Shown: one piece after another, positions 10,211 to 62,629 of the stretch | Layout of the letters: each line of letters begins with the position of its first letter | Numbering within the stretch: position 1 is the stretch's first letter | Source of the DNA: Candidatus Binatia bacterium | GTDB taxonomy: Bacteria; Desulfobacterota; Binatia; UBA9968; CAXXLF01 | DNA length: 64,000 bases | Direction: 5' to 3' | Assembly (NCBI GenBank): GCA_963664015.2 | Contig: CAXXLF010000002.1 | Coordinates: forward strand, 1,664,001-1,728,000 | Made by a program: the position numbers and the translations under genes | Notes under the pieces: model-generated | What the model was told of the DNA's origin: nothing | The model's database searches: none | What the model saw: only the letters and a program-made list of their open reading frames with translations

Positions 10211-10673
10211 AAAGCGCAAACCGCATGGCGCTTTGCGCAAAGCGTCATGACAATTAACGGCAGATTTTCGCTGATTATCGCAGATACGGATTCGGATATT
10301 TCACCGCAGAGATCGCAGAGAGCCGGAGGTAAGAGATCAGAAGTCAGAAATACTGTAAGCAGTATGCAGCAGAAACATTGCTAAGGACAGAATGCAATTA
10401 TTGTTTTGTTTGTCGGGAGACGACGACAAACAAAAAGGTGAGCACTTTTGCCCAATGGTCGTCTCCCGATTGGGCAAATATCCTTATCTTTACGAGCTTG
10501 GCGTCTTGGCGCGAAAATAGCTTTTCTTTGGTTATCTGTGGATATCTGCGTGTATCTGCGGTTAAAGAATCCGGATCCGAATACTGAGAACTAACAATCC
10601 GGACGCTATGCGGCCTGCGGTCCAGGCTGCCTACTGCAAACTGCCCACTGTCTTTCTCTTCCCCTCAGGGCTG
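10211..10673. repeat. Composite intergenic repeat element, locus 1
   Basis: Palindrome CGCTTTGCGCAAAGCG (10229-44); TTAACGGCAGAT (10254) paired with ATCTGCGGTTAA (10565); twin hairpins 10404-10478; end module CTGCCTACTG..CTCTTCCCCTCAG shared with other loci. Confidence 0.85.
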
Positions 10674-10723
10674 ACAACGTGGGGAGATTTGAGCTCCCCA
10701 CAGGATTGTGTATGATGGGCAAG

Positions 10724-10924
10724 ATGGATAAAATCGAACCCCTAAAAGATCACGTGGCGCTCGCCCGCTTCGCCCCGGGGGACAAGATCAGGTTTGGGGG
10801 CAAGACCTGCACCATTTGGAGCAAGACCACCCTCGCCTCCGGCGAGCCCGCCGTGGTCTTGCAGGGTGAAGGCAAACAGTTTGTCGTTCACGCCGCAGAG
10901 TTTCTCGAAGCGGTGAAAAACTAA
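10724..10924 (+). CDS. Small hypothetical protein (66 aa)
   Basis: ORF MDKIEPLKDH.. starts 7 nt after TATGAT; 21 nt from the next gene. Confidence 0.55.
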   Translation: MDKIEPLKDHVALARFAPGDKIRFGGKTCTIWSKTTLASGEPAVVLQGEGKQFVVHAAEFLEAVKN

Positions 10925-10945
10925 GGTCTGAAAGACGAGGAAACC

Positions 10946-11938
10946 ATGGGACAAGTTCATCTGACACTAGCGTGCTGGGACTACGATCGAACCCGTCCCC
11001 TACAAGAGGGAAGGGCCCCCGTCGAAGGGGTTGATCTAACCTACTTACCCCTGCGGGTCGAAGAGACCTTTTGGCGCATGCTGCGCTATCAGGATTTTGA
11101 CGCCGCCGAGTTATCTATGGGGTCTTATCTAATGGCCCGGGATAAAGGACATCCCCGACTGATTGCCATTCCCGTGTTTCCGTCGCGGGCCTTTCGCCAT
11201 TCCTGCATCTATATCAATACGGGATCGGGCATCCATGATCCGAAAGACCTCGTGGGAAAGCGCGTTGGCGTGCCCGAGTATCAAATCACGATGGCGATCT
11301 GGGCGCGGGGGATTCTAGAGCATGAGTACGGGGTTAAACCGGAACAAATGAAGTGGTTCACCGGCGGCGAGGAGCAGCCCGGCCGGGTGGAAAAGCTCAG
11401 ACCGGATTTACCGAAGAACATCGACATTTGTGCGATTAGCCCGGAACAGACTCTCTCATCCATGTTGGAACGGGGAGAGATCGATGCCATGATTTCAGCC
11501 CACATACCTTCCCCTTTCGTACGGCGGTCGCCGAAGGTAGGCCGGCTGATTCCCAACTATCGCCAGGTCGAGGCCGACTACTTCCGCAAAACCGGCATCT
11601 TCCCGATCATGCACACGGTGGCACTACGCGAAGAGTTCTACGAGAAAAACCCCTGGGTGGCGCAGAGCCTGGTCAAGGCATTTGTCGAATCCATGCAGCT
11701 GTGCCAAGCATCCATGTACGAGTTCTCCGCTCTAAAGTATATGATGGCCTGGTCCATCGCTCAGATGGAGGAGGAAAGGGAACTCATGGGGGAAGATGCA
11801 TGGACCTATGGGCTGGAACCCAACCGGCATGTCTTGGAAACCCTTGTCCAGTATGCCCATGAACAGGGCCTGATCAAGAAGCGGCTGGAGGTAGGCGAAT
11901 TGTTTGCCCCCAATACCCTTGAGGATTTCAAGATTTGA
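10946..11938 (+). CDS. 4,5-dihydroxyphthalate decarboxylase-like / substrate-binding-fold protein
   Basis: LTLACWDYDRT, IPVFPSRAFRHS, GKRVGVPEYQ and TGIFPIMH motifs. Confidence 0.85.
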   Translation: MGQVHLTLACWDYDRTRPLQEGRAPVEGVDLTYLPLRVEETFWRMLRYQDFDAAELSMGSYLMARDKGHPRLIAIPVFPSRAFRHSCIYINTGSGIHDPKDLVGKRVGVPEYQITMAIWARGILEHEYGVKPEQMKWFTGGEEQPGRVEKLRPDLPKNIDICAISPEQTLSSMLERGEIDAMISAHIPSPFVRRSPKVGRLIPNYRQVEADYFRKTGIFPIMHTVALREEFYEKNPWVAQSLVKAFVESMQLCQASMYEFSALKYMMAWSIAQMEEERELMGEDAWTYGLEPNRHVLETLVQYAHEQGLIKKRLEVGELFAPNTLEDFKI

Positions 11939-12009
11939 TCGCCGAGTGATCGCCAGACCCTTAATTCGGGTCAGGCGACAGTTCATTGGATTCAACAATT
12001 TAGGTAAAA

Positions 12010-12540
12010 ATGGCAGAAAATAAAGAAAACACCCCCGAGGAAATCAAGTGGTGGATTGAGCGCGGTCCCGTCAGGGAGAGAGAGAAAAAGAACGAGCCCC
12101 TCGGCGGGATTATCGAAAAGTGGGCTTATGAACTCCTTAAGGACTACAGCCAGGAGCAGGCCCTCAAGAGCGTTGCCGGCATCAATCAGCGGATTTTCAA
12201 GGACCTATCGGTAGCGCCCGGCGAATGGGGTTACCAGTCCCTCGATATTGGCAAATTCCACCCGGGCCGGCTGGCCAAGATCAAAGAAGTGCTCAAGCTA
12301 CCTCCCAACGCCAGGGCCCTGGTCATCGATGCTGCTTTTTCGGTGAGGATCCTCATCACCGGCGACCCCATCGGCGAGAGGGTCCTCGATCTCAACTTCA
12401 CCCCGCACCCTTCCATGGATTACTGGATCAAAGGCGAACTTGTGGAAGAACAGCTCTTTTCCGGCCTGGATCAGGCCTTGAGAAAACTGCGGCCGTTATT
12501 GAACCGCTACCTGGAGACTCCCCCAGAAGATCAGTATTAG
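12010..12540 (+). CDS. Hypothetical protein
   Basis: 176-aa ORF with normal composition; family not recognised. Confidence 0.7.
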   Translation: MAENKENTPEEIKWWIERGPVREREKKNEPLGGIIEKWAYELLKDYSQEQALKSVAGINQRIFKDLSVAPGEWGYQSLDIGKFHPGRLAKIKEVLKLPPNARALVIDAAFSVRILITGDPIGERVLDLNFTPHPSMDYWIKGELVEEQLFSGLDQALRKLRPLLNRYLETPPEDQY

Positions 12541-12565
12541 CTATTGGGTATAATTAGACGAAAGT

Positions 12566-13705
12566 TTAAGCCTGCTGTTCCCGCGTTTCGGAACGTCGGT
12601 CATCCTTGGAACCCAACGGCACCGATGCGGTGACTTCCATACCGTACCCCGAAAGGGCAACGAGATTCTTGGGATTGTTGGTGAGCAGACGCATCTTTCG
12701 CACCCCCAGGTCTCTCAGGATCTGAGCGCCGATCCCATATTCCATGAAATCCCTATCATCCCCTTTCCTCCGATCCAGGGGCCCCATTTCTTTACCCTCA
12801 ACCTGTAGATACAGGATTACCCCCTTGCCCTCTTTGGCAATGATCTCCATGGAGCGGTGGATGACCCAGCGAGAATCGGGGGACGGAGAACCAGGAGAGG
12901 CAAGGCTTACCTCAAAAACGTCCCCGGCCACGTATTTGGACTGCACCCGCACCAGGGTTTCCTCATCGGGAGACAGCTCACCCTTGACCAGGGCCAGGTG
13001 CTCGCTGCCATCCACATGGGTGTTATAAACCACCGCGTCGACCACTCCTCCGGATCGAGTGGGAAGCTTAGCGGATGCGGCCCGGTAAACAAGACTGTCG
13101 CACTTGAGCCGGTACTGAATCAGATCGGGCACCGTACACAACTTCAACCCATGTTCCTCGGAAAAGGCCTCGAGATCGGGGAGCCGCGCCATCGTACCGT
13201 CATCCTTCATGACCTCGCAGATCACCCCGGACGGCTTCAAACCAGCCAAACGTGCCAGGTCCACGGACCCCTCGGTTTGACCGGCACGGACGAGGACACC
13301 GCCTTTCTTTGCCTGGAGCGGGAAGATATGCCCCGGGGTAACGATCTTACCTGCGTCCGCGGCATCGCCAATGGCGGCGAGAATGGTATAGGCCCGATCC
13401 GCCGCTGATATCCCTGTGGTGATGTTTTCCGCGGCATCGATGGTAATGGTAAAGGCCGTACCATAGGGGGAGGTATTATCGGCAACCATCATGGACAAGC
13501 CGAGCTTGGCTATATCTTCCTCGATCATGGGCAAGCAGATGAGACCCCGGCCATAGCGGGCCATAAAGTTGATGGCATCAGGGGTCACTTTCTCCGCTGC
13601 CATGCATAGATCCCCTTCGTTTTCACGGTTTTTGTCGTCCATCAGGACGACCATCCGGCCCTCGCGGATATCTTCGATAGCCTCTTCGATAGTCACTATT
13701 GCCAT
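12566..13705 (-). CDS. ribB: 3,4-dihydroxy-2-butanone-4-phosphate synthase fused to a degenerate GTP cyclohydrolase II-like domain (RibBX type)
   Basis: [27 protein letters not shown] and [11 protein letters not shown] motifs; C-domain has [11 protein letters not shown] and RLLTNNP but lacks the Zn-binding cysteines. Confidence 0.92.
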
Positions 13706-13749
13706 GGGAGTTCACTTTACCACGCCACCCCGGTACGTCAACAACGCCT

Positions 13750-14135
13750 GGGGGGGGAGAGTAAGACAGTAGGCCGTTTGCAGTAGGCAGTAAGAAAGCT
13801 AAGTGCTAGGAGGAGAGCCTTTAGAGCAATTAACCGCAGATTTTCGCTGATTATCGCAGATGCAGATTCGGATATCTCACCGCAGAGACGTTTTTCGACT
13901 GTGCACGGGACTGAGGGAAGAGTTTTTGCCCAATCGGGAGACGACGATTGGGCAAAAGGCCTCGCTTTCAAAAGCAGTATCTTTTTGTTTGTCGTCGTCT
14001 CCCGACAAACAAATAATATTTGTGTTCTGTTCTTAGCACTGTTCCTGCTGCCCATTGCATACTGCTTACTGTCTTTTGAATTGCTGCCTCCTGCCTACTG
14101 CCCACTATCTTAATTTCCGCGCAATGCGCTTTGCA
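13750..14135. repeat. Composite intergenic repeat element, locus 2
   Basis: End module inverted (about 13753-13790); TTAACCGCAGATTTTCGCTGATTATCGCAGAT 13830-61; twin hairpins 13924-13957 and 13984-14013 are the reverse complement of locus 1. Confidence 0.85.
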
Positions 14136-14150
14136 CATGGTCGGTGTCAG

Positions 14151-14179
14151 TTGACCCTGTGGGTGCGCTCTACTATAGT
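14151..14179 (+). promoter_or_regulatory. Sigma70-like promoter of ispG
   Basis: TTGACC-17 nt-TATAGT, 6 nt before GTG 14186. Confidence 0.6.
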
Positions 14180-14185
14180 TGAGGG

Positions 14186-15283
14186 GTGTTCGAACGGAGA
14201 ATAACTCGCCCGCTTGAAATCGGGAAGGTAAAAATCGGCGGTGCCGCGCCGATTCCGGTCCAGTCGATGACGAAGACGGACACTCGCGATGTGCAGGCGA
14301 CCGTGCATCAGATCTGGGCCCTGGAGGCCGCCGGTTGTGAGCTGATCAGAGTCGCGGTTCCCGTACGTGAGGCGGCCGAGCAGCTTGCCGAAATCAAACA
14401 AAAAATCCGCATCCCCCTGATCGCCGATATTCATTTCAATTACAAGCTGGCCCTCATCGCGCTGGAGCAAGGAGTCGACGGCTTGAGGCTCAATCCAGGA
14501 AACATTGGTGCCCGCCATCTGATCGAAGAGGTCGTCAAGCTCGCCTCCGAGCGCAGGGTCCCAATCCGCATCGGTGTTAACGGCGGTTCCCTCGAGAAGG
14601 ATCTTCTAAACAAGTATGGCGGCCCTACGGCTGAGGGAATGGTCGAGAGTGCCTTGCGGCATATTAGGATATTGGAAGACGTTGGCTACAACGAGATCAA
14701 GGTCTCTCTGAAGGCCTCGGATCCCATGATGATGATCCAGGCTTATCGCATGCTCGCAGACAAAACCGAATATCCGTTTCACCTTGGCGTGACCGAGGCC
14801 GGCACCCCCAGCATGGGGACCATCAAGTCCACCGTGGGGATCGGAACGCTTTTGGCGGAAGGAATCGGGGATACCATTCGGGTTTCTCTGGCAGCGGACC
14901 CGGTTGAGGAGATCCGTGTCGGCATTGAGATCCTCAAGGCCCTGGGCCTGCGTAAACACGGGTATACCTTTGTTGCCTGCCCCTCCTGTGGCCGCGCCGA
15001 TATCGACCTGGTAGCCCTGGCCAAGGAAGTGGAGCAGCGTATGTTGCCCTATAGCAATAAGGATATCCACGTGGCCGTCATGGGCTGTGAAGTGAACGGA
15101 CCGGGGGAGGCCCGGGGCGCGGATATCGGCGTGGCCGGCGGAAAAGGTATTGGTTTGATCTTTAAAAAAGGTCAAATCATTCGGAAGGTCCCTGAAGCGC
15201 AAATTGTGGAAACCCTGATGGAAGAGGTGGAAAATTTGGTGGCCGAGAAGGAGGCCGTAGGCCAAGCGGTTGACCAGGATTAG
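14186..15283 (+). CDS. ispG: (E)-4-hydroxy-3-methylbut-2-enyl diphosphate synthase
   Basis: VQSMT, ADIHF, RLNPGNIG, CPSCGR and MGCEVNGPGEA motifs. Confidence 0.97.
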   Translation: MFERRITRPLEIGKVKIGGAAPIPVQSMTKTDTRDVQATVHQIWALEAAGCELIRVAVPVREAAEQLAEIKQKIRIPLIADIHFNYKLALIALEQGVDGLRLNPGNIGARHLIEEVVKLASERRVPIRIGVNGGSLEKDLLNKYGGPTAEGMVESALRHIRILEDVGYNEIKVSLKASDPMMMIQAYRMLADKTEYPFHLGVTEAGTPSMGTIKSTVGIGTLLAEGIGDTIRVSLAADPVEEIRVGIEILKALGLRKHGYTFVACPSCGRADIDLVALAKEVEQRMLPYSNKDIHVAVMGCEVNGPGEARGADIGVAGGKGIGLIFKKGQIIRKVPEAQIVETLMEEVENLVAEKEAVGQAVDQD

Positions 15284-15325
15284 CTGCTTCATTGACTCAC
15301 TCAAGCCCCCGGCAAAATAGATCCC

Positions 15326-17050
15326 GTGCGCTGGAACACAACTTTTATCCCTACCCTTAAAGAGGACCCGGCGGATGCCGAAGTCGTCAGCCACAAGCTC
15401 CTGGTCCGTGCCGGAATGATCCGTCAGGTAACCCGCGGCGTGTACGACTATCTGCCCCTGGGCCTCAGGGTCATTCGCAAGACGGAGGCGATCGTACGAG
15501 AGGAAATGAATCGGGCTGGGGCCCAGGAGCTCCTGCTGCCTTTTACCTCGCCTGCCGAACTGTGGCGTGAGAGCGGTCGCTGGGACGTCTACGGTAAGGA
15601 GCTGCTTCGGCTCAAAGACCGCCATGAAAGGGACTTCTGCCTCGCACCGACTCATGAGGAGGTCATTACGGACCTGATCCGCCGAGAGGTGCGCTCCTAC
15701 CGGGAGCTCCCGTTTAACCTGTATCAGCTCCAGACCAAGTTTCGCGACGAAGTGCGCCCGCGCTTCGGCCTCATGCGGGGTCGCGAGTTCATCATGAAGG
15801 ACGCCTACAGCTTCCACGCGGATATGGACGACTGCCGCCGCGAGTATCAGAATATGTTCGAAACCTACAACCGGATCTTTAGCCGGTGTGGTTTAAAATT
15901 TCGCCCCGTAGAGGCGGATACGGGGGCCATCGGCGGAACCCTTTCCCATGAATTTCAGGTCCTGGCCGAATCCGGAGAAGACGCCCTGGTGACGTGCCAG
16001 AGTTGCAATTATGCGGCTAACGTTCAAACAGCGGAGAACCGGCACCTTCAGCCGGCGACACGGGGACAGGAAAAGACGACGCCTATTAAAAAGGTAAGTA
16101 CGCCGAGAAAGAAGAGCGTTCCCGACGTTGCTCGGTTTCTCAAGCTCCCCACCGACCGATTCATCAAGACCCTGATCTACAAAGTCGACGGGAAGGAACT
16201 GGTGGCCGTTTTGCTGCGCGGCGACCATGAGATGAACGAACTCAAATTACAGAAGTTCCTCGCGTGCGATGAAGTGTCACTCGCAGACGAAGGCGAGGTC
16301 CAGTCAAAGACCGGACTGGTTCCGGGTTTCCTGGGTCCAGTCGGTCTTAAACTAAAAATCGTAGCCGACCATGCAGTTGAGGGGATGCAAGGGGCAGTCA
16401 CCGGTGCCAACCAGGCCGATCACCATCTCGTCGAGGTCGATCAGGCAAGGGACTTTACGGTATCGGCCTATGCAGATCTCAGAACCGCCATGCCCGGCGA
16501 CGCCTGTCCCCGGTGCGACAGCGGTAAGCTCGAACGCTACCGGGGAATCGAAGTCGGGCAGATCTTTTACCTGGGGACCAAATACAGCGAGGTCATGAAG
16601 GCCAAGTTTCTCGACGCCGAGGGAAAAGAACGGCCTATCGAAATGGGCTGCTACGGGATCGGCATTACCCGTCTCATGGCCGCAGCCATTGAGCAGAACC
16701 ACGATGAGAACGGGATCATCTGGTCCATGCCCCTGGCTCCGTTTCAAGTTATCCTGCTTCCGATTAACTACAAAGACAAGGCCATCCAGGAGGCCGCGGA
16801 TACCCTATACAACGAATTGCTTGAAAAAGGGATCGAGGTTCTGCTGGATGACCGTGACGAGCGCCCTGGAGTCAAATTCAAGGACGCCGATCTCATCGGA
16901 ATCCCCCTACGCGTTACCATAGGGGCCAAAGGGCTGCAGAAGGGAAGTGTCGAGGTACGCCGTCGGTCCGTTGGAGAAACGACCGACGTTGCCCTGGCCG
17001 AAACCGTGGCCCAGATTCAATCCATGGTTGCCGAAGGCCTGAAGAGCTGA
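15326..17050 (+). CDS. proS: Proline--tRNA ligase with INS editing domain
   Basis: LAPTHEE, FRDEVRPRFGLMRGREFIMKDAY and MGCYGIG motifs. Confidence 0.98.
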   Translation: MRWNTTFIPTLKEDPADAEVVSHKLLVRAGMIRQVTRGVYDYLPLGLRVIRKTEAIVREEMNRAGAQELLLPFTSPAELWRESGRWDVYGKELLRLKDRHERDFCLAPTHEEVITDLIRREVRSYRELPFNLYQLQTKFRDEVRPRFGLMRGREFIMKDAYSFHADMDDCRREYQNMFETYNRIFSRCGLKFRPVEADTGAIGGTLSHEFQVLAESGEDALVTCQSCNYAANVQTAENRHLQPATRGQEKTTPIKKVSTPRKKSVPDVARFLKLPTDRFIKTLIYKVDGKELVAVLLRGDHEMNELKLQKFLACDEVSLADEGEVQSKTGLVPGFLGPVGLKLKIVADHAVEGMQGAVTGANQADHHLVEVDQARDFTVSAYADLRTAMPGDACPRCDSGKLERYRGIEVGQIFYLGTKYSEVMKAKFLDAEGKERPIEMGCYGIGITRLMAAAIEQNHDENGIIWSMPLAPFQVILLPINYKDKAIQEAADTLYNELLEKGIEVLLDDRDERPGVKFKDADLIGIPLRVTIGAKGLQKGSVEVRRRSVGETTDVALAETVAQIQSMVAEGLKS

Positions 17051-17054
17051 CGCG

Positions 17055-17819
17055 ATGGCCTCGAACCCAGATGCCGTCGTGTTGCCTGTTTCAATGAAGG
17101 AAAAACTGATCCTGGCCTTGGACGTCGACGATCTGGAACCGGTCAAACGGCTCGTCGGCTTACTATCCGGCCAGGTAGAGTTGTTCAAGATCGGCAAGCA
17201 GCTATTCGTCCATGCCGGCCCGTCTGTAGTCAAGCTCATCCGTGACCAGGGCGGCGAAGTCTTCCTGGATCTCAAATTTCACGATATTCCCAACACCGTG
17301 TCCAAGGCCGCCGTCGAGGCCACCCGCCTCGGCGTGAGGATGTTTAATCTCCACGCCTCGGGCGGTCTGGAGATGATGCGCCAGACCGTTGAGGCCGTGC
17401 ATGATATCGGCAGCAAGGCAAAGCTCCGTCGTCCCATCCTCTTAGGAGTAACCGTTCTAACCAGTCTCGACCAGGAGGACCTCACCCGGATAGGCGTAAC
17501 GGCAAAGGTTACCGATCAAGTCGTGCGACTGGCGACCCTATGCCAGGAAGCGGGGATGGACGGCGTAGTGGCATCGCCCCGAGAGGTCAGTTTGATCCGC
17601 TCCGCCTGCGGCCCTCGCTTCACGATCGTTTGCCCCGGCATTCGCCCTCAAGGCAAGGCGCAGGCCGATCAAAAAAGGGTGATGACGCCAGGAGAGGCCA
17701 TTCGCACCGGTGCAGATTATATCGTCGTCGGCCGTCCCATCACGGAGGCGAAAGATCCGCTGGCGGCATCCAGAGAGATCGTCGCGGAAATGGTACAGGC
17801 CGCCAATACGGACCATTGA
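17055..17819 (+). CDS. pyrF: Orotidine-5'-phosphate decarboxylase
   Basis: LALD, FLDLKFHDIPNTV, PGIRP and VVGRPI motifs. Confidence 0.97.
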   Translation: MASNPDAVVLPVSMKEKLILALDVDDLEPVKRLVGLLSGQVELFKIGKQLFVHAGPSVVKLIRDQGGEVFLDLKFHDIPNTVSKAAVEATRLGVRMFNLHASGGLEMMRQTVEAVHDIGSKAKLRRPILLGVTVLTSLDQEDLTRIGVTAKVTDQVVRLATLCQEAGMDGVVASPREVSLIRSACGPRFTIVCPGIRPQGKAQADQKRVMTPGEAIRTGADYIVVGRPITEAKDPLAASREIVAEMVQAANTDH

Positions 17820-17841
17820 GGCACGGACCAGTGAAATAATC

Positions 17842-18732
17842 ATGAAGCCGACGGGATTCTATACATTACTCGGCTTGGTATTTTCCCTGTTCATTATCCC
17901 CACTATCGTTCTCGCCCAAGGGGTAAAAGAAGATAGGGTGAAGCGAGGCCAGTATATTTTTGCCCTGGCCGGCGGCTGCGCCTGCCACACGATGCCTGAA
18001 AAGACCCCGCATGCGGGGGGACGAAAGTTTCCCGTTCCCCTGGGGACAGCCTACTCCACCAACATAACTCAGGACAAAGAGACCGGGCTTGGCAACTGGT
18101 CGGATGAGGAAATTCTTAACGCTATGGTCAAGGGGATCCGCCCCAACGGGCAGAGGGTGCTGCCCTTGATGCCCTACGAGGCCTACTCGGGTATGGCGGA
18201 AGAGGACCTGAGGGCCCTGATCGCCTATATGAAGACGCTAAAGCCGGTGCGCAAAAAATCACCGCCAGCGAAGTTTCAGGTCCCATTCATACGCTCTTTG
18301 ATGACCCCCATGTGGCTCAAACTCTTCGCCCACTTCTCGACACCCCCTAAGCAAGCGCCCAAAAGCGGAATCAAAAGGGGCAAGTACCTGGTCGATCACG
18401 TGGCCCTTTGCGGCGACTGCCATACACCTCGAAAATCCTTGGGGGTACCGAACCGTTCCCTCTACCTCGCAGGCGCCGAGTCGGGTCCTCTGGGAGAAGA
18501 CGTACCCAACATTACACCCGACGAAAATACCGGCATTAAAGACTGGAGCCGTGACCAGATCGCCGACCTTCTCATCAAGGGAACCAAACCGGACGGGGAT
18601 GAAGTTCAGGGCCTCATGGACGAGGTCATCTGGGGAACGCCTCTCGGCTACAAGGACATGAACCGCCAGGATGCTTTAGCCATTGCCGATTACCTGAAGT
18701 CCATCCCACCCATCGTCAACGAGATCAATTAG
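17842..18732 (+). CDS. Periplasmic diheme cytochrome c (gluconate/alcohol dehydrogenase cytochrome c subunit-like)
   Basis: Signal peptide; RGQY..GGCACHT, NITQDKETGLGNWS, RGKYLV..CGDCHTPR and PNITPD motifs. Confidence 0.88.
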   Translation: MKPTGFYTLLGLVFSLFIIPTIVLAQGVKEDRVKRGQYIFALAGGCACHTMPEKTPHAGGRKFPVPLGTAYSTNITQDKETGLGNWSDEEILNAMVKGIRPNGQRVLPLMPYEAYSGMAEEDLRALIAYMKTLKPVRKKSPPAKFQVPFIRSLMTPMWLKLFAHFSTPPKQAPKSGIKRGKYLVDHVALCGDCHTPRKSLGVPNRSLYLAGAESGPLGEDVPNITPDENTGIKDWSRDQIADLLIKGTKPDGDEVQGLMDEVIWGTPLGYKDMNRQDALAIADYLKSIPPIVNEIN

Positions 18733-18771
18733 AACCTAAGATCAAAGCAGACAAATACCTCCTTAGGAACC

Positions 18772-19164
18772 TAACCGCAGATTTTCGCTGATTATCGCAG
18801 ACGGGAACACAGCAAAGCGCTAAGACAGGGCTATTACTGCGGGACAACTGACAGAAGGAAGACAGTTTGCAGTAGGCAGTAAGAAAGCTATGCGCTAAGA
18901 GTAAGGCAGTTTCAAAACTCAAAACCCTAAATCCGAAATAAATTTAAATAACAGAATACCTAATCTCAAAACTACAGAATTAAATAGGGTAGGGCTTTGG
19001 TAATTTTAATTTTGATATTGCTTAGAGTTTCGGATTTGGGATTTGGTGCTTTGGATTTAGAATTTATTATTTAGTCTGCGGATATCTGCATAAATCTGAG
19101 GTTAAATGTCTTCACTCTTTGCCCCTTGCTGCCTACTGTCTTACTCTTCCCCTCAGCGCTTTGC
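18772..19164. repeat. Composite intergenic repeat element, locus 3
   Basis: TAACCGCAGATTTTCGCTGATTATCGCAGA 18772; GCAAAGCGCT (18812) paired with AGCGCTTTGC (19164); AT-rich AAATCCGAAA..TTTCGGATTT core. Confidence 0.85.
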
Positions 19165-19169
19165 AGCGG

Positions 19170-20990
19170 TTAGCCGAGCTGCTGCGACCCGCGGTGAAAC
19201 TGCATCAAATATAGCTCTCGATACAACCCCTCCTGCCCCACCAACTCATTATGGGTTCCCTGCTGCACAACCTGCCCGCGTTCGACGACAAACAGCCTGT
19301 CCGCATTCCGTATGGTCGAGAGACGATGCGCAATGACAAAGGAGGTTCGCCCGCTCAAGAGGCGTTTTAACACGGCCTGAATGAGTGCCTCCGTTCGGGT
19401 ATCGATGCTAGCCGTGGCCTCATCCAGGACGAGGATACGCGGGTTTGCCAAGACGACCCGTGCCAGGGCCATGAGTTGCCGCTGACCCTGGGAGAAATTC
19501 TGCCCACGTTCGAACACCCGGGTAGCGTATCGCTCCGGCAAAGGGAAGATGAAATCATGTGCGCTTGCCTGCCTAGCAGCCTCCATCACCTCTTCATCGG
19601 TCGCATCCAAGCGGCCAAAACGAATGTTGTCTGCGATAGTGCCGGTAAATAAAAATGGGTCCTGTGGGACGACGCCAATCTGGCACCGCAGGGATGATTG
19701 GGTCACCTCCCGGATGTCGGTGCCATCGATCAGTATCCGTCCCTCACTCACATCGTAAAACCGGCTGATCAAACTGGAGATGGAAGTCTTACCGGCACCC
19801 GTGGGCCCTACCAATGCGATCGTTTGCCCCGGTTCCACTGTAAAGGAAATATCTTGAAGAACCGGCACCCCATTGCGATAACTGAAATTGACCTGATCGA
19901 ACTCAACCTTGCCTTTGATTTGGGACATGGGCCTGGCATCGGGACGGTCATCCACCTCCACCGGCGTGTCCAGCAACTCAAAGATCTTCTCACCTGCTGC
20001 CATGGACTGCTGGAAGAGAGTGTAGATCGTGCTGAGTTCCCGTATGGGTTGAAAAAACCGTGTCACGTAGGTTAGAAACGCCACCACAACGCCTACGGTG
20101 ATCTCACCAGCAAGCACGGAAGCGGCACCAAACCAAAGCACCGTTGCCGTTGCCAGCATGGCGATTACCTCCACCACCGGCGGGAAGGCGCTGGATAAGG
20201 TCACAGCCCACAGATTTGCTTGAAGGTTCGCAAGGTTAACCTGGTCGAACCGATTCTGACTCACCTGTTCACGGGCAAAGGCCTGGACCACCCGGACACC
20301 GGAAATGCTCTCCTGAAGACTCGCCGCCACCTGAGCAATGGTCTCCCTGGTACGCAGATAAGCCCCTCGCACACGATGGGCAAAGACCAGGGTCACAATC
20401 ACCATGACCGGTGAGAGTGCAAAGGTGTAAAGCGCAAGCTTGGGGCTCATGGTGAGCATGATCACGACGATGCCTACAATAACCAAAAGGTCAGCCACCA
20501 GGTCGACGAACCCATGGGTCATCAACTCCTGCAATACCGTCACGTCGTTGATAATTCGCGACATGGTCACACCCGATTTGTGCCGGTCGTGATAGCCCAA
20601 GGGGAGCCGGTTGATCTTCTGGAATAGCTGGTCGCGTATCCGCTTCAACACCCGTTGAGTGACCGAGGCCATGGTGTAGGATTCACCTGCCTGCGAGCCC
20701 CAAGCGATGAGCAAGGTTAGCAAGAAACCGATGCAGACCATGGAAAGGCCGGCCATGTCTTGCTGTGCCACCAAATAGTCATCAATGGCGACTTTCAGCA
20801 GGTAAGGACCAATGAGGTGCATGCCGGCGGTAATGCTGACCAGGATCATGGCCCCAATCACGTTAATCCGGTATGGTTTTAGATATTCGAGCAGTCGCTT
20901 GACCACCTGGGGGTTGAAGGCTCTTCCTCTGGTCCGTCTTCCGGTACCGTTGGAATGCCACATCCACCCTCCGCCTCCTTGCGCGACCAT
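19170..20990 (-). CDS. ABC exporter, permease/ATPase subunit B
   Basis: TMD plus Walker A GPTGAGKT, degenerate signature FSQGQRQ, LDEAT, AHRLST. Confidence 0.95.
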   Translation of the reverse strand: MVAQGGGGWMWHSNGTGRRTRGRAFNPQVVKRLLEYLKPYRINVIGAMILVSITAGMHLIGPYLLKVAIDDYLVAQQDMAGLSMVCIGFLLTLLIAWGSQAGESYTMASVTQRVLKRIRDQLFQKINRLPLGYHDRHKSGVTMSRIINDVTVLQELMTHGFVDLVADLLVIVGIVVIMLTMSPKLALYTFALSPVMVIVTLVFAHRVRGAYLRTRETIAQVAASLQESISGVRVVQAFAREQVSQNRFDQVNLANLQANLWAVTLSSAFPPVVEVIAMLATATVLWFGAASVLAGEITVGVVVAFLTYVTRFFQPIRELSTIYTLFQQSMAAGEKIFELLDTPVEVDDRPDARPMSQIKGKVEFDQVNFSYRNGVPVLQDISFTVEPGQTIALVGPTGAGKTSISSLISRFYDVSEGRILIDGTDIREVTQSSLRCQIGVVPQDPFLFTGTIADNIRFGRLDATDEEVMEAARQASAHDFIFPLPERYATRVFERGQNFSQGQRQLMALARVVLANPRILVLDEATASIDTRTEALIQAVLKRLLSGRTSFVIAHRLSTIRNADRLFVVERGQVVQQGTHNELVGQEGLYRELYLMQFHRGSQQLG

Positions 20991-28280: not shown

Positions 28281-28475
28281 CGCGCAAAGACTCCGTCAGA
28301 GGACGGATCACCCCCCGCCTTAGGCGGGTCCGCCTCAGCAGGACCGGGCTGAGCAAAGAACACCAAGGTTTAGTAATATTACAAAATTCGAAACTTAGAA
28401 TCCGAAACAAACATGACAAATTCCAAAATTATAAGATCCTCAATCCAAAATCTAAAATCAAACACCTAAATTCTA
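28281..28475. repeat. Composite intergenic repeat element, locus 4 (inside nuo operon)
   Basis: CGCGCAAAGAC..GCAAAGAACACCAAG interrupted by three mini-hairpins; AT-rich heptad tract AAATTCGAAAC..AATCCGAAACAAA..AATCCAAAATCTAAAATC. Confidence 0.7.
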
Positions 28476-40011: not shown

Positions 40012-40362
40012 GCAAAACGCAAAGCTCAAAGCGTTCGGACTTCAGCTGTCAGCTAAGAAGTGTTGAGTGTTAGATTCTCAGTGATCAGTTCCAAACTCTT
40101 TAACCGCAGGGGGACGCAGACTAAATAATCAGTCCACAATCCGAAACTCTAAACAATATCAAAATCCAAATCACTAAAGGCCTAAACTATTTGATTCTGT
40201 AGTTTTGAAATTAGGATGCCGAGTTTTGAAACTGTTTTTCTCCTAGCGCATAGCGTTCAGCCTGCTTACTGTCTTCCTCTCTTCTCTGGCTGATAGCTGA
40301 GAGCTATCTTGCTGCATACTGCCTACTGTCTTTCTCTTCCCCTCAGCGCTTTGCCCTTTGCT
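40012..40362. repeat. Composite intergenic repeat element, locus 5
   Basis: Nested inverted repeats GCAAAG../..CTTTGC and TCAGCTGTCAGC/GCTGATAGCTGA; AT-rich core is the reverse complement of the locus 3 core; end module 40319-40354. Confidence 0.85.
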
Positions 40363-51432: not shown

Positions 51433-51513
51433 GGTCAAAAGTCAATTGTAAACGATCAATGGGTCAGGGTTGGCATTCCTTGGTGACACACCAATTACTA
51501 TTGACCATTGACT
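51433..51513. repeat. Heptad-unit inverted repeat between nuoD and nuoE
   Basis: GTCAAAA GTCAATT GTAAACG ATCAATG facing CAATTAC TATTGAC CATTGAC. Confidence 0.6.
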
Positions 51514-51529
51514 AAGAAGTAGTTTCACT

Positions 51530-52003: not shown

Positions 52004-52014
52004 CCGGCAAAGCC

Positions 52015-53307: not shown

Positions 53308-53347
53308 GTGGGAGAAGGAAAATTCCTAGACAATTTTAACCAACACT

Positions 53348-54919: not shown

Positions 54920-54934
54920 ATCGCATCATTAGCC

Positions 54935-56023: not shown

Positions 56024-56035
56024 AGTAACCGATCC

Positions 56036-56536: not shown

Positions 56537-56544
56537 TAAGAGCT

Positions 56545-56847
56545 ATGCTGTCACTCAACTACTATCTTGCACTGAGTGCTCTGATCTTTGCCATTGGTGT
56601 GATGGGCGTCATTATCCGGCGTAACCTGATCATCATCATGATGTCCATAGAGCTCATGCTCAATGCGGTTAATCTGGCCTTTGTGGCCTTGGCCCGTAGC
56701 CACGGCTCCATGGATGGGCAAACCATAGTGGTCTTTGTTATGGCAGTTGCGGCGGCTGAGGCCGTAGTGGGGCTGGCCATCGTCATTACCGTGTTCCGCC
56801 AGCGTCAGACCCTCGACCCCCAGGAGATGCAGCTTTTAAAAGGATAA
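56545..56847 (+). CDS. nuoK: Complex I subunit K (cluster 2)
   Basis: [13 protein letters not shown] and [10 protein letters not shown] motifs. Confidence 0.95.
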
Positions 56848-56848
56848 C

Positions 56849-58741: not shown

Positions 58742-58913
58742 GTTGGGTTGTTAACGTTGTTTCAGGATAATGGACAACTCGCGAAGGGCGGAATATTCGG
58801 CACAGAGCAACCGGTACGCGGCCGGCAACGGGATGGAAGACTACTGACGACTGAGACCTGATTACCGAATCCTTTTTTATGAATACTCTCTCAAGGTTTG
58901 TGATGGTCGCTCT

Positions 58914-60470
58914 ATGACAGAATCGTTTCCAGGAATACTAACCCTACTCCTCGGCATCCCGCTGCTTGGCGCCGTGGTGATGGGTTTCATCCCCCGGAAC
59001 AGCAAGGGAAGCCTGTTTGGGTGCGCTCTGTTCTTTACCGTTTTGGATTTGCTCTGGTCACTCAACATTCTTTCCCGGTTCAATTCCACGCTGGGGGAAA
59101 TGCAGTTCGTGGAGCGGGTTGCCTGGATTCCGAGTTACGGGGTCGAGTATTTCATCGGGATTGACGGTCTCAGCCTCTTCCTCATTTTGCTCACTACTCT
59201 TCTCGGTCCCATCGCCATCCTGGCATCCTGGAGCATCGAGGAGAAGGTCAAAGAGTTCCTCCTGTTCATGCTCATCCTTCAAACCAGTATGCTGGGAACC
59301 CTGCTAGCCCTGGACCTCTTTCTCTTTTACGTTTTTTGGGAGGCCATGCTCATCCCCATGTATTTCATTATCGGGGTATGGGGCGGGCCTCGCCGCATCT
59401 ATGCGGCCCTCAAGTTCGTTATCTACACCATGAGTGGGAGCCTGATCATGCTAATTGGGATCATCGCACTGGTAACGACGGCGAGCCAACTCAACCAGAC
59501 TACCAGTTTCGACCTGCTGCGGCTTTACGACCTACGGCTTTCCTTTGAACAGCAGATGTGGCTTTTCCTGGCATTCTCCCTCTCCTTTGCTATCAAGGTT
59601 CCCCTTTTTCCTTTTCACACCTGGCTTCCCGATGCCCACGTTGAGGCACCTACAGCCGGTTCCGTGATCCTGGCGGGGGTCATGTTAAAGATGGGCACTT
59701 ATGGTTTTCTGCGCTTTGCGATCCCGCTTTTTCCCGACGCCGCCCGTGCGGCCGCTCCGTTCATCTCGACCCTTGCCGTCATTGGCGTCGTGTACGGGGC
59801 TCTTGTCGCAATGATGCAGAGTGATCTCAAAAAACTTGTGGCCTATTCGTCTGTGAGCCATCTGGGTCTGGTCATGCTGGGGCTCTTCGCCCTCAATCTG
59901 CAGGGAGTACAAGGGGCCGTCTATCAGATGATCAACCACGGCTTGTCCACTGCCGCCCTTTTCCTGGCCGTCGGGATGATCTACGAGAGACGCCATTCAC
60001 GGATGATAGCCGACTTTGGTGGCTTGTGGAAAGTGATCCCCCTCTTCTCCGTCATCTTTCTTGTCATCACGCTCTCTTCCATCGGCCTTCCCGGGCTCAA
60101 CGGGTTCGTCGGCGAGTTTTTGATTCTCCTCGGCGCCTTCAAGAACATGACCCCATGGGCCGTCGTTGCCGCCAGCGGGATCGTCCTGGCCGCCATCTAT
60201 ATGCTCTGGATGTACCGCCGGGTGTTCTTCGGCCCCATCTCCCCAGAGAACCAAACCCTTAAAGATGTGGGGACACGAGAGATCGTGGTGCTCGTTCCTA
60301 TCCTTGTACTGATCGTCTTTATGGGGATTTATCCCAAGCCCATTTTGAATCGCATATCGCCGTCGGTGGAGAAGATCATTGCCCGAATGGAGCGGCCCAC
60401 TACCCTGTCCCGCCAAACGCTAGAGGAACGACGAACAGCAGAGAAAGAGGGGGCTAGGCATGCAAATTAA
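58914..60470 (+). CDS. nuoM: Complex I subunit M (cluster 2)
   Basis: FWEAMLIP and PFHTWLPDAHVEAP motifs. Confidence 0.97.
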   Translation: MTESFPGILTLLLGIPLLGAVVMGFIPRNSKGSLFGCALFFTVLDLLWSLNILSRFNSTLGEMQFVERVAWIPSYGVEYFIGIDGLSLFLILLTTLLGPIAILASWSIEEKVKEFLLFMLILQTSMLGTLLALDLFLFYVFWEAMLIPMYFIIGVWGGPRRIYAALKFVIYTMSGSLIMLIGIIALVTTASQLNQTTSFDLLRLYDLRLSFEQQMWLFLAFSLSFAIKVPLFPFHTWLPDAHVEAPTAGSVILAGVMLKMGTYGFLRFAIPLFPDAARAAAPFISTLAVIGVVYGALVAMMQSDLKKLVAYSSVSHLGLVMLGLFALNLQGVQGAVYQMINHGLSTAALFLAVGMIYERRHSRMIADFGGLWKVIPLFSVIFLVITLSSIGLPGLNGFVGEFLILLGAFKNMTPWAVVAASGIVLAAIYMLWMYRRVFFGPISPENQTLKDVGTREIVVLVPILVLIVFMGIYPKPILNRISPSVEKIIARMERPTTLSRQTLEERRTAEKEGARHAN

Positions 60471-61944
60471 TCAGGTTAATCTGGTTAATCCGGACACCCT
60501 TCCCTCCCTCGCGGAGCTTTGGCTGGCCGGTCCGGTCATCGAGATTCTGATCGCTGCCTTGACGGTGCTTCTCTTGGACCTCTTTTTAAAGGATGAGGAC
60601 AAGGGAGCCCTGACTTGGATCAGCGTCCTGGGCCTGGCCACTGCCGGAGCCATGTCCCTGGTCCTCTGGCCAAGTGGCGAAGGCATCCTTTTCAATAGCC
60701 TTCGCATCGACGGCTTCAGCCTATTTTTTACCAATCTCCTTCTCGCTGCGGCCATACTGACATTGCTGTCCTCGGTCCATTACCTGAAAGAGACAAACAT
60801 TCAGAAGGGCGAGTTCCACGCCCTGATTCTCTTCAGCACCTTTGGTATGATCCTCATGGCTATGGCCAACGACCTGATCCTGTTTTTTCTCGCACTCGAG
60901 ACCATGTCCATCGGTGTCTATGTCCTCACCGGCATGTGGCACCAGCGAAGCGCGGCGGGAGAGGCCGCCATGAAATATTTCTTGAACGGCGCCTTCGCCT
61001 CCGGTTTTCTCCTCTACGGTATCGCCTTGATCTATGGGGCAACCGGATCCACCAACCTGGAGCGTATCGGAGATTATCTTTCCCAAAACCCCTTACAGGG
61101 GAACTTTCTTTTAATTACCGGTGCCGTGCTTCTATTGATTGGCCTCGCCTTCAAGGTAGCCGCAGTCCCCTTCCATTTCTGGGCTCCGGACGTTTATGAG
61201 GGTGCGCCGACTCCAGTCACCGGGTTCATGGCCGTAGCGGTCAAGGCCGCCGCCTTTGCTGGTTGGATCCGCATCGTAATGCATCAACTGAGTCCCCTGG
61301 AAGACCAATTGTCCTTTATCCTCTGGGCTATCGCGATCCTTACGATGACGGTCGGTAACCTCCTGGCCCTGACCCAGTCCAGTGTCAAACGAATGCTTGC
61401 CTATTCGAGCATCGCTCATGCGGGGTATCTCCTCATTGGGGTTATCGCAGGAAACGACATGGGAGGTTCGGCTGTACTCTTTTATATGCTGGTTTACACC
61501 CTCATGACCCTGGGGGCCTTCGGTGTCCTGATGGCCCTTCAGCAAGCGGGCAAGGACAACGACTCGTATCAGGCCTTTGCGGGTATCGGTTTCAAGCACC
61601 GCTTCTTAGCCCTGGCCATGTCGATCTTCATGCTCTCATTGGCCGGGTTTCCCCCTTTTGGAGGGTTTACCGGAAAGTTTTACCTATTTCGCTCGGCCGT
61701 TGAATCCGGCCACACGGTCCTTTCCGTCATCGCTGTTTTGAACAGCGTATTGTCCGTGGCCTATTATCTACGGGTCATCGTGATGATGTATATGCAGGAA
61801 GGACGGGGAGAAGCGAAACCCTTTCGCCGCTCCCCCTACCTCTACACGGCCATCGCAATCACGGCCCTTGGCATCCTCTGGCTAGGCGTAGCGCCGGATT
61901 TCCCATTGGAGCTCAGTCGAATCTCCATCGCCTCGCTCCGCTGA
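60460..61944 (+). CDS. nuoN: Complex I subunit N (cluster 2)
   Basis: EAAMKYF, PFHFWAPDVYEGAP and KRMLAYSSIAHAGY motifs. Confidence 0.96.
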   Translation: MQINQVNLVNPDTLPSLAELWLAGPVIEILIAALTVLLLDLFLKDEDKGALTWISVLGLATAGAMSLVLWPSGEGILFNSLRIDGFSLFFTNLLLAAAILTLLSSVHYLKETNIQKGEFHALILFSTFGMILMAMANDLILFFLALETMSIGVYVLTGMWHQRSAAGEAAMKYFLNGAFASGFLLYGIALIYGATGSTNLERIGDYLSQNPLQGNFLLITGAVLLLIGLAFKVAAVPFHFWAPDVYEGAPTPVTGFMAVAVKAAAFAGWIRIVMHQLSPLEDQLSFILWAIAILTMTVGNLLALTQSSVKRMLAYSSIAHAGYLLIGVIAGNDMGGSAVLFYMLVYTLMTLGAFGVLMALQQAGKDNDSYQAFAGIGFKHRFLALAMSIFMLSLAGFPPFGGFTGKFYLFRSAVESGHTVLSVIAVLNSVLSVAYYLRVIVMMYMQEGRGEAKPFRRSPYLYTAIAITALGILWLGVAPDFPLELSRISIASLR

Positions 61945-62008
61945 TTCAGACCCACAAAGAGGAACAAGAGCTGAGTAGGTCCGCAAAGCGCTCAGAGCCG
62001 GAGATCAG

Positions 62009-62042
62009 AAGTCAGCTGCTCTACCAACTGAGCTACCAGCCC
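62009..62042 (-). pseudogene. tRNA 5' half (positions 1-34), not an intact tRNA
   Basis: GGGCTGG TA GCTC AGTTGGTA GAGC A GCTGA CTT gives the acceptor 5' strand, D-arm and 5' anticodon stem; no contiguous 3' half. Confidence 0.8.
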
Positions 62043-62227
62043 ACAAACGCCAACACGATATACCAAAAAATACCAAACCTGTCGACGACCTTTAATAGCG
62101 TATACCTGCGTATACTTTTTATAGACCAGAAAAACTTAAGTGAATAAATCTATAAGTTATTGATATTATTATCTTATTATAGATATTGTGACAGGTTTAA
62201 CAAATTGACCCGGTGATTATAAGTCAG
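62009..62227. mobile_element. 212-bp att-like insert carrying split tRNA pieces
   Basis: AAGTCAG direct repeats at 62009-15 and 62221-27; IHF consensus at 62153-65; GCGTATAC tandem at 62098 and 62108. Confidence 0.65.
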
Positions 62228-62629
62228 AGGTCAAAGGTCAGAATGATACTAGGCAGTGAGCAACAAATCAGGACAGAGTGGTAAGTGCCAAGGGTGGAGC
62301 GAACATGAAGCTATCAACTAATAGCTAAATAGGCGCAAAAGAGATCAAAAACTCGAATAACGAAAACCTAAATCCGAAATAAATTCAAATGGCAAAATGC
62401 CTAATTTCCAAACTAGAGAATTGAATAGTTTGGGACTTTGGTAATTTAAATTTGGGTATTGATTAAAGTTTCGGAATTCGGATTTTGGATTTGATGTCTA
62501 TCTGCAGTTAAAGAATCCGAATTCTGAGAACTATAGTCCGGACGCTATGCGCCATCCTCTTTGCGCTTTGCTTTCTTGCTGCCTACTGCAAACTGCCTGG
62601 TGTCTTACTCTTCCCCTCAGCGCTTTGCA

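Follow-up and report, generated by a model that had tools for sequence, protein, structure and literature searches.

Gene-less palindromic elements of a Candidatus Binatia genome share their arms and hairpins with cassettes that enclose GxxExxY genes in relatives

Many bacteria carry short palindromic repeats throughout their intergenic regions, and most of these repeat families have no known mover. We analyzed a window of 64,000 nucleotides from a Candidatus Binatia bacterium (GenBank assembly GCA_963664015.2, contig CAXXLF010000002.1), which corresponds to C2:1664001-1728000 of the genome under study (G000; 3.51 Mb, 2 contigs). It contains six intergenic loci, numbered here from left to right: 10211-10673, 13750-14135, 18772-19164, 28281-28475, 40012-40362, and 61983-62628. 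A first-pass annotation of the window had described them as a family of nested, gene-less elements. Judged by sequence, these loci belong to dispersed palindromic families, and their arms and hairpins are those that enclose genes of the GxxExxY type, encoding a small predicted nuclease, in related genomes.

Several described systems resemble these elements in part. Correia/NEMIS, ERIC and RUP are bacterial miniature inverted-repeat transposable elements (MITEs) without a known partner; like the elements studied here, they are small, non-coding, intergenic and multi-copy, have inverted ends, occur at synteny breakpoints and lack an internal transposase gene. In contrast to them, the present elements have no sharp outer boundary, no target-site duplication was detected outside their ends, their arms consist of tandem short units, and their cores are interchangeable and invertible. 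The bacterial interspersed mosaic elements (BIMEs) of Escherichia coli are mosaics of repetitive extragenic palindromic (REP) units and named spacer motifs, and share with the window loci the principle that a few palindromic units and linker motifs are combined in orders that vary from one intergenic site to another. The two are unrelated in sequence, and BIMEs differ from the elements described here, which are built of heptad and decad arrays and of hairpins with complementary loops. Short tandemly repeated repetitive (STRR) heptamer arrays and small dispersed repeats have reportedly been described in cyanobacteria by Mazel in 1990 and Elhai in 2008; these, too, are said to be intergenic tandem heptamers of many units with nested small palindromic inserts, and we know of no tie of these elements to a nuclease gene. 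Unlike theirs, the host here is not a cyanobacterium, which was ruled out by the absence of PsaA/PsaB and by a lack of HIP1 enrichment.

In the REPIN-RAYT system (Bertels and Rainey 2011, PMC3116915), REP doublets occur together with a REP-associated tyrosine transposase (RAYT). According to the accessible part of that report, REPINs are short intergenic palindromes arranged as inverted doublets in tens to hundreds of dispersed copies, and the gene-less copies are held to depend on an enzyme gene of single or low copy number, with the repeats on either side of it. Both features have parallels here, but the gene lies between the two hairpins and encodes a PD-(D/E)XK nuclease (GxxExxY) instead of a Y1/HUH transposase, the hairpins are wrapped in arms of tandem 7-10-nt units, and no RAYT is linked to them. 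Paired inverted arrays of hepta- and octanucleotides were reported from Geobacter metallireducens as "putative global regulator binding sites" (Aklujkar et al. 2009, PMC2700814). As far as the accessible text of that paper goes, they consist of four or five tandem 7-8-nt units and form variably spaced pairs, one member on each strand, between the genes of a likewise deltaproteobacterium-type host, and one class consensus, MTYCTGA, is close to the TCTGAC/TCTGAT units found here. That text interprets them, unlike our elements, as IHF/HU sites and does not mention a link to GxxExxY genes. The third comparison concerns ORF-bearing intervening sequences of 23S rRNA, in which the open reading frame (ORF) is of the S23p or four-helix-bundle type (Warrier et al. 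2016, PMC4990558). In the portion of that paper available, they appear as a small gene of unclear role within inverted long-stem sequences, selfish and decaying to ORF-less forms; they sit in helix 45 and are excised from the RNA by RNase III, whereas the elements described here are intergenic, known from DNA alone, and associated with a predicted nuclease. We found no published account of the present element or of GxxExxY genes tied to repeats; the supplementary alignments of the Geobacter work may bear on this point.

When the genome was searched with the six regions by BLAST, 128 short matches were obtained (41 for locus 2, 39 for locus 1, 19 for locus 3, 13 each for loci 5 and 6, and 3 for locus 4), which fall in 51 clusters, 28 of them within C2:1.48-1.92 Mb. 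As proposed in the first-pass annotation, the loci are non-coding and belong to element families with dispersed copies. A self-BLAST of the genome grouped by single linkage was dropped, since it fused coding paralogues into one component of 385 regions. Single modules used as nhmmer queries over the whole genome (E ≤0.01) yielded 17 copies each of modules A and E, 8 of D, 4 each of G and TL, and 2 each of T and F. Three words of the elements are far more frequent in the genome than their reversed counterparts (GCAAAGCGC, 76 versus 22; CTGCCTACTG, 26 versus 5; CACCGCAGAG, 18 versus 3), and period-7 arrays of at least three copies number 67 genome-wide versus 3 in a shuffled genome, as determined with TRF. 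The modules that had been proposed as common to all six loci are shared by five of them at the sequence level. Locus 4, with its 3 BLAST matches versus 13-41 for the others, contains no module common to the other five and resembles them only in its layout, in which AT-rich short units adjoin a hairpin core.

An alignment of 14 E-bearing loci including their flanks revealed one canonical palindrome, which reads A-B-H1-H2-B'-A' from end to end. Its outer part consists of a TTAACCGCAGAT-type arm with three units at 10-nt spacing, ending in TTAACC (A), and of CACCGCAGAG..GCAGAG..GCTGAG units (B, three GCAGAG units). Next come the hairpins H1 (loop GGAGACGA) and H2 (loop TCGTCTCC) with a variable linker between them, and the palindrome closes with B' and with A', which ends ..CTGCGGTTAA; the two hairpins form core E, and their 8-nt loops are mutually complementary. 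Layers of GCAAAGCGC/CTGCCTA-type heptads (K/T) lie outside of A, and an AT-rich heptad foldback (D) can replace the hairpins as an alternative core within A-type ends. The loci are thus layered like an onion, with inverted layers round a hairpin core. In 4 of the 14 aligned copies (C1:840515, C1:745037, C2:1002158, and C2:1602818), a palindromic insert of ∼40-75 nt lies between the first and second B units, starting with GTCC(C)TCGA in three of them; a CTCGAG-containing insert is found at the equivalent arm position in Desulfobacterota-labelled loci.

The terminal 14-mer of A occurs 71 times in G000 at up to two mismatches and 44 times at up to one, compared to about one occurrence expected by simple arithmetic. 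Eleven convergent pairs of A ends, 87-428 bp apart, are present in this genome, and 20 such pairs from G000 and the loci of its relatives, 89-481 bp apart, define a short non-coding unit bounded by inverted ends, with length classes of 89-116, ∼190-270, ∼310-345, and 420-480 bp. For comparison, we used the relatives G001-G004; G002 and G004 are related at the family level, and their matching public records are labelled Candidatus Binatia. At up to one mismatch, the 14-mer was found 44 times in G002 and 146 times in G004, while the reversed word was absent from both. Among the 31 genomes searched, the element is present in 4, all of the window's own family, and in none of the 26 belonging to two sister families. 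A wider sample was obtained from a collection of 185,579 species genomes, in which 56 stretches contain a 20-nt word from hairpin H2 (hereafter the 56 hairpin loci). Forty of them are labelled Candidatus Binatia and 16 otherwise, mostly as Desulfobacterota-type; the latter group also includes one short contig each with the labels Nitrospirales, Anaerolineales, and Thermoplasmatota, for which errors of binning could be responsible. In loci not labelled Binatia, the hairpins stand between CGCAGAG/CACAGAG arms ending in GGTGAA, and the A layer is absent. E is found in both orientations relative to A among these loci.

Within G000, the copies are not evenly distributed. The cumulative GC skew is lowest at C2 ∼1,762,000 (34-98 kb beyond the window) and highest where C1 and C2 join, which places the window near the probable replication origin. 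The 18% of the chromosome round this minimum contains 9 of the 17 A, 9 of the 17 E, and 7 of the 8 D matches, and 7 of the 8 D matches are no more than 300 kb away from it.

A gene-bearing form of the element was found in a relative. There is no GxxExxY gene in the window or in G000, based on TIGR04256 (0 matches), PF13366 (0), and tblastn with 12 queries (0). Likewise, G001-G003 contain none, and G004 has five (PF13366). Two of these five lie inside the same element type as the window copies. In the first (L100, positions 1229-1888), A and B are followed by a hairpin with the loop AGAGACGA, a GxxExxY gene broken by a stop, a second hairpin with the loop TCGTCTCC, and B', which ends in GGTGAA. 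In the second (L098, positions 1273-1985), the order is A and B, a hairpin, a partial A, an intact GxxExxY gene, and A'. Both genes match TIGR04256 at 145-161 bits. The window arms at 10254-10321 and 13830-13888 are of the type that flanks GxxExxY genes, with about three tandem short units and end words of the TTCACC/TTAACC type. Moreover, the element of L100 is located between rsmE and an RDD-domain gene, and the orthologous site of G000 is occupied by a gene-less A-B-H1-H2-..-A' element (C2:1904156-1904500). The proteins flanking this site are 64% and 50% identical between the two genomes, the left arm can be aligned, and the core has the opposite orientation.

The association extends to other members of the phylum. 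In two Desulfobacterota-labelled loci (L043 and L049), a Pfam-confirmed GxxExxY gene is located directly beside a hairpin and B' units. In a distant genome of the phylum (L114), the gene lies within a 39-nt arm pair, a second pair of hairpins, and hairpins whose loops are 17-nt perfect complements containing GAGACG. GxxExxY genes are present in 72 of 201 sampled genomes of the phylum. We scored inverted flanks as significant at p ≤0.01 against shuffles and used other ORFs within the same loci as controls: 14 of the 29 GxxExxY genes with enough flanking sequence have such flanks, versus 3 of 42 control ORFs. The first-pass annotation had offered a connection with GxxExxY genes, and it is borne out by this frequency and by the A and B arms and two hairpins that enclose the gene in G004. 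Hairpin pairs with complementary loops were detected at 3 of the 29 genes, in addition to L100, and at none of 53 controls or 11 four-helix-bundle genes.

The GxxExxY protein comprises ∼130 amino acids. In an alignment of 16 such proteins, the G..E..Y motif is invariant, and the residues D66, E76, and K78 are found in 16 of 16. A structural model with a predicted local distance difference test (pLDDT) value of 92.9 adopts a PD-(D/E)XK nuclease fold with confidence, and its best matches among solved structures are Cas4 SSO0001, lambda exonuclease, and the archaeal Holliday-junction resolvases (Hjc). The modelled structure thus suggests a nuclease and leaves its substrate unfixed. A sequence search of solved structures with the protein gave one chance-level match (E 0.048). 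The accessible part of a survey of PD-(D/E)XK proteins lists PDDEXK_3 as being of unknown function.

We then compared orthologous sites between genomes. In three relatives of two genera, the gene order round loci 1-3 is AcrB, gcpE block, inverted ribBA..SBP block, cytochrome c, and ABC transporter. Relative to this order, the ribBA..SBP block (10181-14185) has moved and flipped in G000, and loci 1 and 2 are located at the junctions; the loci mark a rearrangement. The site between cytochrome c and the ABC transporter is filled by A-TL-D-A'-T in G000, by a foldback of CACGAAG units in G004, and by B-hairpin-hairpin-B' in G002, and two sites with a full A-E-A' in G004 have AT-rich D-type cores in G002. 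All four orthologous sites that were compared with relatives are occupied, each by different cores. Neither an empty allele, as looked for on the advice of the first-pass annotation, nor a target duplication was found at any of the four. These sites are hot, always filled, and filled differently, and their cores are interchangeable and invertible.

Variation between strains, at the parts of loci 1-3 that could be compared, is confined to smaller changes. No RNA run containing the stretch was found. DNA contigs from four runs of other samples (97-99% identity) cover parts of loci 1-3; contig joints that link A+B to E match other genomic copies and were left out of the variant count. These contigs differ from G000 by exactly one 10-nt unit at 10543 in the right arm A' of locus 1 (a deletion in run X7), by one missing heptad at 14084 (run X5), and by an inserted heptad, CTGCCTA, at 19128 (runs X5 and X7). 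Unit slippage is thus the mode by which the arrays evolve. The picture of a "Russian doll", proposed for these loci at the outset, describes their layered anatomy well. As a cause of this anatomy, nested insertion of elements that target one another is not borne out. Since cores occur in both orientations within the same arms, the shuffling is accounted for no less well by recombination and inversion between arms that the elements have in common.

Based on these observations, we lean towards the view that the window loci derive, as gene-less mosaics, from a palindromic cassette with a GxxExxY gene in its complete form; they would descend from such cassettes and would have depended on them. With regard to the mechanism, our suggestion is considerably more tentative: copying of the element might be driven by the nuclease. 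The enzyme of a gene-bearing copy would recognize the hairpins, or a cruciform extruded from them, and break the DNA there, and repair by copying from another element could then spread, replace, or flip cores between sites with common arms. Such a process would be closer to homing or gene conversion than to cut-and-paste transposition. Loss of the GxxExxY gene from G000 would have turned its copies into relics, whose present changes may be limited to single 7- or 10-nt units gained or lost and to recombination between arms; the latter would also explain the local change of gene order at loci 1 and 2.

Several points weigh against this derivation and its mechanism. The two arrangements between rsmE and the RDD-domain gene could be independent fillings of a hot spot and not an element and its deletion derivative. 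No presence/absence polymorphism was found among near-identical strains at the covered parts of loci 1-3. The spread of the element does not closely track the GxxExxY gene, because only 2 of the 56 hairpin loci have such a gene within 8 kb and G002 has 44 arm ends yet no GxxExxY gene. Conversely, only about one-eighth of the GxxExxY genes have hairpins with complementary loops, and half are without a significant inverted flank. The D core and the K/T layers are not tied to any gene.

Alternatively, the loci could be classical MITEs, that is, non-autonomous elements moved in trans by the cut-and-paste activity of an unseen DDE transposase. The 10-nt-periodic A arms would be its binding sites and TTAA (or TA) its insertion target, with mutual insertions generating the mosaics. 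Long inverted ends with periodic sub-repeats are expected for multiple binding sites, the units fall into discrete length classes, and copy numbers differ widely between related genomes. TTAA is present at both ends in 12 of the 20 pairs of A ends, where it could be part of either the end or the target. However, no transposase-domain ORF lies between A ends in G000, and the long A..A' intervals enclose housekeeping genes. The rve-type insertion sequence (IS), the sole multi-copy IS of G000 (4 copies), has unrelated ends, by which it was ruled out as a partner, and the ends of an IS200-like element of G004 are unrelated as well. Direct repeats outside the ends are absent from 12 of the 20 pairs and measure 1 nt in six, 2 nt in one, and 4 nt in one, similar to shuffled partners, in agreement with the earlier statement that no target-site duplication is visible. 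The inverted symmetry does not stop at the TTAA ends but extends beyond them, so that a sharp transposon boundary is missing, and none of the four orthologous comparisons revealed an empty site. We therefore regard an origin as classical MITEs as unlikely.

The constraint on the hairpins, which counts in favour of the cassette reading as well, and their folding bear on another possibility, namely that the elements serve the host, either as sites for a nucleoid or regulatory protein or as structured RNA modules for mRNA processing or stability, and are kept by selection. The 12-mer CGTCGTCTCCCG (≤1 mismatch) occurs 143 times in the genome and the 56 hairpin loci. In 96 of these 143 instances, it is accompanied by at least seven contiguous stem pairs, with 27 distinct stems, many of which are set apart by compensatory double changes round a fixed loop. 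Chance would account for about 20-30 of the 143 matches, and these lack a stem. Stem covariation and invariant loops extend to metagenome-assembled genomes labelled Desulfobacterota. As single-stranded DNA, core E of locus 2 folds as two hairpins (–26.6 kcal/mol, z –6.3), whereas the minimum-energy fold of the RNA pairs both loops into a 15-bp helix (z –6.1). Since the stems covary, the comparison favours local hairpins over a long-range helix between the loops.

Invariant loops, stems covarying across phyla, and strong folding (z ∼–6 as DNA or RNA) are what would be expected of host-serving elements. Three further points agree with this: the T modules of loci 3 and 6 end 6 and 2 nt away from a stop codon, the copies are concentrated round the minimum of the GC skew, and similar paired arrays in Geobacter are read as putative IHF/HU sites in the accessible text of PMC2700814. 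Against it, different cores at orthologous sites of sister genomes speak against a conserved site-specific function, and the neighbouring genes are tandem, divergent, and convergent alike. Because T runs precede and A runs follow the hairpins on both strands, these are not intrinsic terminators. Moreover, the loci within 10000-19400 have no Rfam match at E ≤1, and the same hairpins enclose a nuclease gene elsewhere. We consider a role in the service of the host rather improbable.

Largely refuted, and highly improbable in our judgment, is mobilization as REP/REPIN-type hairpin doublets, moved as single-stranded DNA by a RAYT or an IS200-like Y1 (HUH) transposase: the core is a doublet of two inverted hairpins as in REPINs (accessible part of PMC3116915), and G004, the genome with most copies, also has many Y1 transposase genes (32 matches), but G000 has no Y1_Tnp match above the Pfam cut-off, none of 10 Y1_Tnp loci of relatives contains A, E, or D, and the hairpins at the ends of the IS200-like element of G004 are unrelated to the present ones. 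RAYT/IS200, named in the first-pass annotation among the genes to look for between the modules, was accordingly ruled out as a partner. Among the matches in G004, 19 score 89-128 bits; G002 has one such gene and G000 none. Three loci of G004 (L087, L091, and L095) contain a common 527-bp IS200-like unit with a TnpA of 150 amino acids, at 99.8-100% identity. A weak Y1_Tnp-like frame in G000 (C1:436524-436766; 244 amino acids, 22.4 bits, sub-cut-off) has none of these hairpins nearby and is located between two copies of the triple mini-hairpin found at locus 4. It reads HLQ at what we take to be the position of the HUH motif.

Beyond the genome under study, a broader generalization of the GxxExxY cassette can be put forward, although we hold it to be speculative: GxxExxY proteins may be the enzymes on which a widespread and so far undescribed class of selfish DNA elements in bacteria relies. 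The nuclease would cut the hairpins, repair-mediated copying would spread the element or swap its cores, and gene-less copies would be its parasites. In such an element, two hairpins with mutually complementary loops of the GAGAC type would enclose the nuclease gene, and arms built of tandem 7-10-nt units would enclose the hairpins. The Binatia copies would have accreted extra layers, clustering near the replication origin and marking rearrangement breakpoints, and heptad arrays in many phyla, including the long-unexplained cyanobacterial ones, could be by-products of the same machinery.

Four-helix-bundle genes had been proposed as a second kind of partner, a link that turned out to be weak. 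The window has no PF05635 gene. G000 has three such genes, all on contig C1 (357753-358013, 444428-444745, and 679071-679388), two with an internal stop, and each is flanked by tandem heptad arrays with a different unit per gene; the region C1:434-472 kb contains 12 heptad arrays. Significant inverted flanks were found for 5 of 11 four-helix-bundle genes. On the other hand, there is no A or E module near these genes, and the sole match is one D at one end of locus L109.

In the window itself, we recovered modules A, B, D, E, and T and the heptads, by TRF, nhmmer, and reading of the sequence, at the places where they had been annotated. Period-10 arrays were detected at 10260, 10525, 13835, and 18776 and period-7 heptad arrays at 13767, 14084, 19028, and 62469; the inverted partners of A are located at 10531-10566 and 19076-19106, and module B (CACCGCAGAGA) at 10301 and 13878. 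Also in agreement with the earlier description, the loci encode no protein: the only frames of at least 100 amino acids that overlap them, 13738-14055 and 62583-62921 (both minus strand), have no Pfam match. Module matches lie in open frames of no more than 169 amino acids, and most random sites lie in far longer frames of up to 912. No Rfam family, a match to which had been named as a reason to abandon the proposal, reached its gathering score anywhere in the window. In a search of 10000-19400 at E ≤1, the sole match lies outside the loci, in the riboflavin gene ribBA; this weak similarity of its coding region (13506-13609) to the Vibrio RNA AS9 (29 bits, gathering 50, E 0.07) is most likely due to chance. 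Collections of annotated plasmids, phages, and viral contigs contain no match to the window elements.

Locus 1 starts with an outer palindrome of the K layer, GCGCTTTGC and GCAAAGCG (10211-10246), which was read in the sequence and whose word GCAAAGCGC is enriched genome-wide. The left arm (10254-10321, plus strand; nhmmer match 10255-10312) consists of A followed by B (CACCGCAGAG..GCAGAG). Its A starts with TTAAC and has three CGCAGAT-type units at 10-nt spacing (TRF period 10 at 10260-10285). GATCAGA/AGTCAGA heptads and module F follow at 10322-10400 (plus strand, read in the sequence). Further copies of F, as judged by two nhmmer matches, are found at C2:1918666 and, inverted, at 14019-14075. 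The core E is inverted (10404-10478, minus strand; nhmmer match 10485-10405) and has hairpins at 10404-10435 (loop GGAGACGA) and 10446-10478 (loop TCGTCTCC), both of which fold. The right arm A' (10531-10566, minus strand), a period-10 array, ends ..ATCTGCGGTTAA, and the two arms share a 14-mer pair at 10254 and 10552, 298 bp apart. Modules G (10563-10616; four nhmmer matches, one of them at 62513-62553) and T (10627-10673; BLAST depth 4) complete the locus on the plus strand (10563-10673).

Locus 2 begins with an inverted T of CAGTAGG heptads (13753-13818, minus strand; TRF period 7 at 13767-13792, nhmmer TL match 13764-13818). Its arm A+B (13830-13888, plus strand) is the reference copy, with 17 nhmmer matches in the genome and a terminal 14-mer that is enriched in relatives. 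The core E (13912-14018, plus strand) likewise has 17 nhmmer matches, folds as DNA and RNA, and shows stem covariation. It comprises H1 (13924-13957, loop GGAGACGA), a small middle hairpin (13964-13975), and H2 (13984-14013, loop TCGTCTCC). The remainder (14019-14135, plus strand) is the inverted F (14019-14075) and a T-like end with CTGCCTA heptads (14084-14106, TRF period 7), which terminates in GCGCTTTGC.

At locus 3, arm A (18771-18804, plus strand; nhmmer match 18772-18804, TRF period 10) is followed by an end of the GCAAAGCGCT type with CAGTAGG-type heptads (TL; 18812-18912, plus strand, four nhmmer matches), which lies inside the A..A' pair. The core is the AT-rich foldback D (18925-19061), with TCCGAAA/TTTCGGA-type heptads in inverted order (eight nhmmer matches; TRF period 7 at 19028). 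Arm A' (19076-19106, minus sense) and end module T (19112-19164) occupy 19076-19164 of the plus strand. The last letters of this T are AGCGCTTTGC, and 6 nt separate them from the stop codon of the gene for the ABC transporter. The pairing of T with GCAAAGCGCT at the opposite end, noted earlier for loci 3 and 6, was found at both, with GCAAAGCGCT opposite AGCGCTTTGC.

Locus 4 (28281-28475) represents a different family, in which a GC-rich triple mini-hairpin (28281-28360) stands beside AT-rich short units (28361-28475). The triple mini-hairpin has four further genomic copies, two of them on contig C1 and flanked by heptad arrays. Locus 5 (40012-40355) contains GCAAAG/TCAGCTG units (40012-40099), a degenerate A (∼40100-40122), an inverted D (40131-40233), heptads (40237-40318), and T (40309-40355), with nhmmer matches in the locus.

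Locus 6 starts with a GCAAAGCGCT end with GATCAGA/AGTCAG units (61983-62050), which abuts a fragment resembling the 5' half of a tRNA. This fragment (62007-62043, minus strand) contains an acceptor arm, a D arm, and an anticodon loop with TCT, stops exactly at the start of the GATCAGA/AGTCAG-type units, and matches no full genomic tRNA; ARAGORN called no tRNA in the window, this fragment included. The remainder of the locus (62222-62628, plus strand) carries GGTCAGA heptads (62222-62245), D (62367-62487), a remnant of A' (62497-62512), G (62513-62553), and T (62563-62628), which ends 2 nt from the stop codon of a TatD-like gene.

Outside of the window, the first ∼148 kb of contig C2 (C2:1-152000) are dense in (AC)n and (AG)n microsatellites and lower in GC, and contig C1 has almost no such microsatellites. 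C1:1-12742 is 99.99% identical to C2:152105-164845 in reverse, and the bacterial chromosome seems to close at this match. The first 152 kb of C2 therefore look like foreign, eukaryote-like DNA joined on by assembly.

To our knowledge, four features of these elements are new in addition to the orthologous pair of a gene-bearing and a gene-less site: the twin hairpin with complementary loops as the inner boundary of a cassette, the extra A and K/T layers in Binatia, the unit-number polymorphism, and the clustering round the GC-skew minimum. Shared arms, hairpins, and one orthologous site tie these repeats to a very common, unstudied small nuclease gene. If this link is true, it would provide a function for a large protein family, bring a new type of enzyme into the MITE/REPIN picture as a partner, and give tandem heptad arrays a testable origin. 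For annotation, it would account for repeat-induced contig breaks and local changes of gene order in uncultured genomes.

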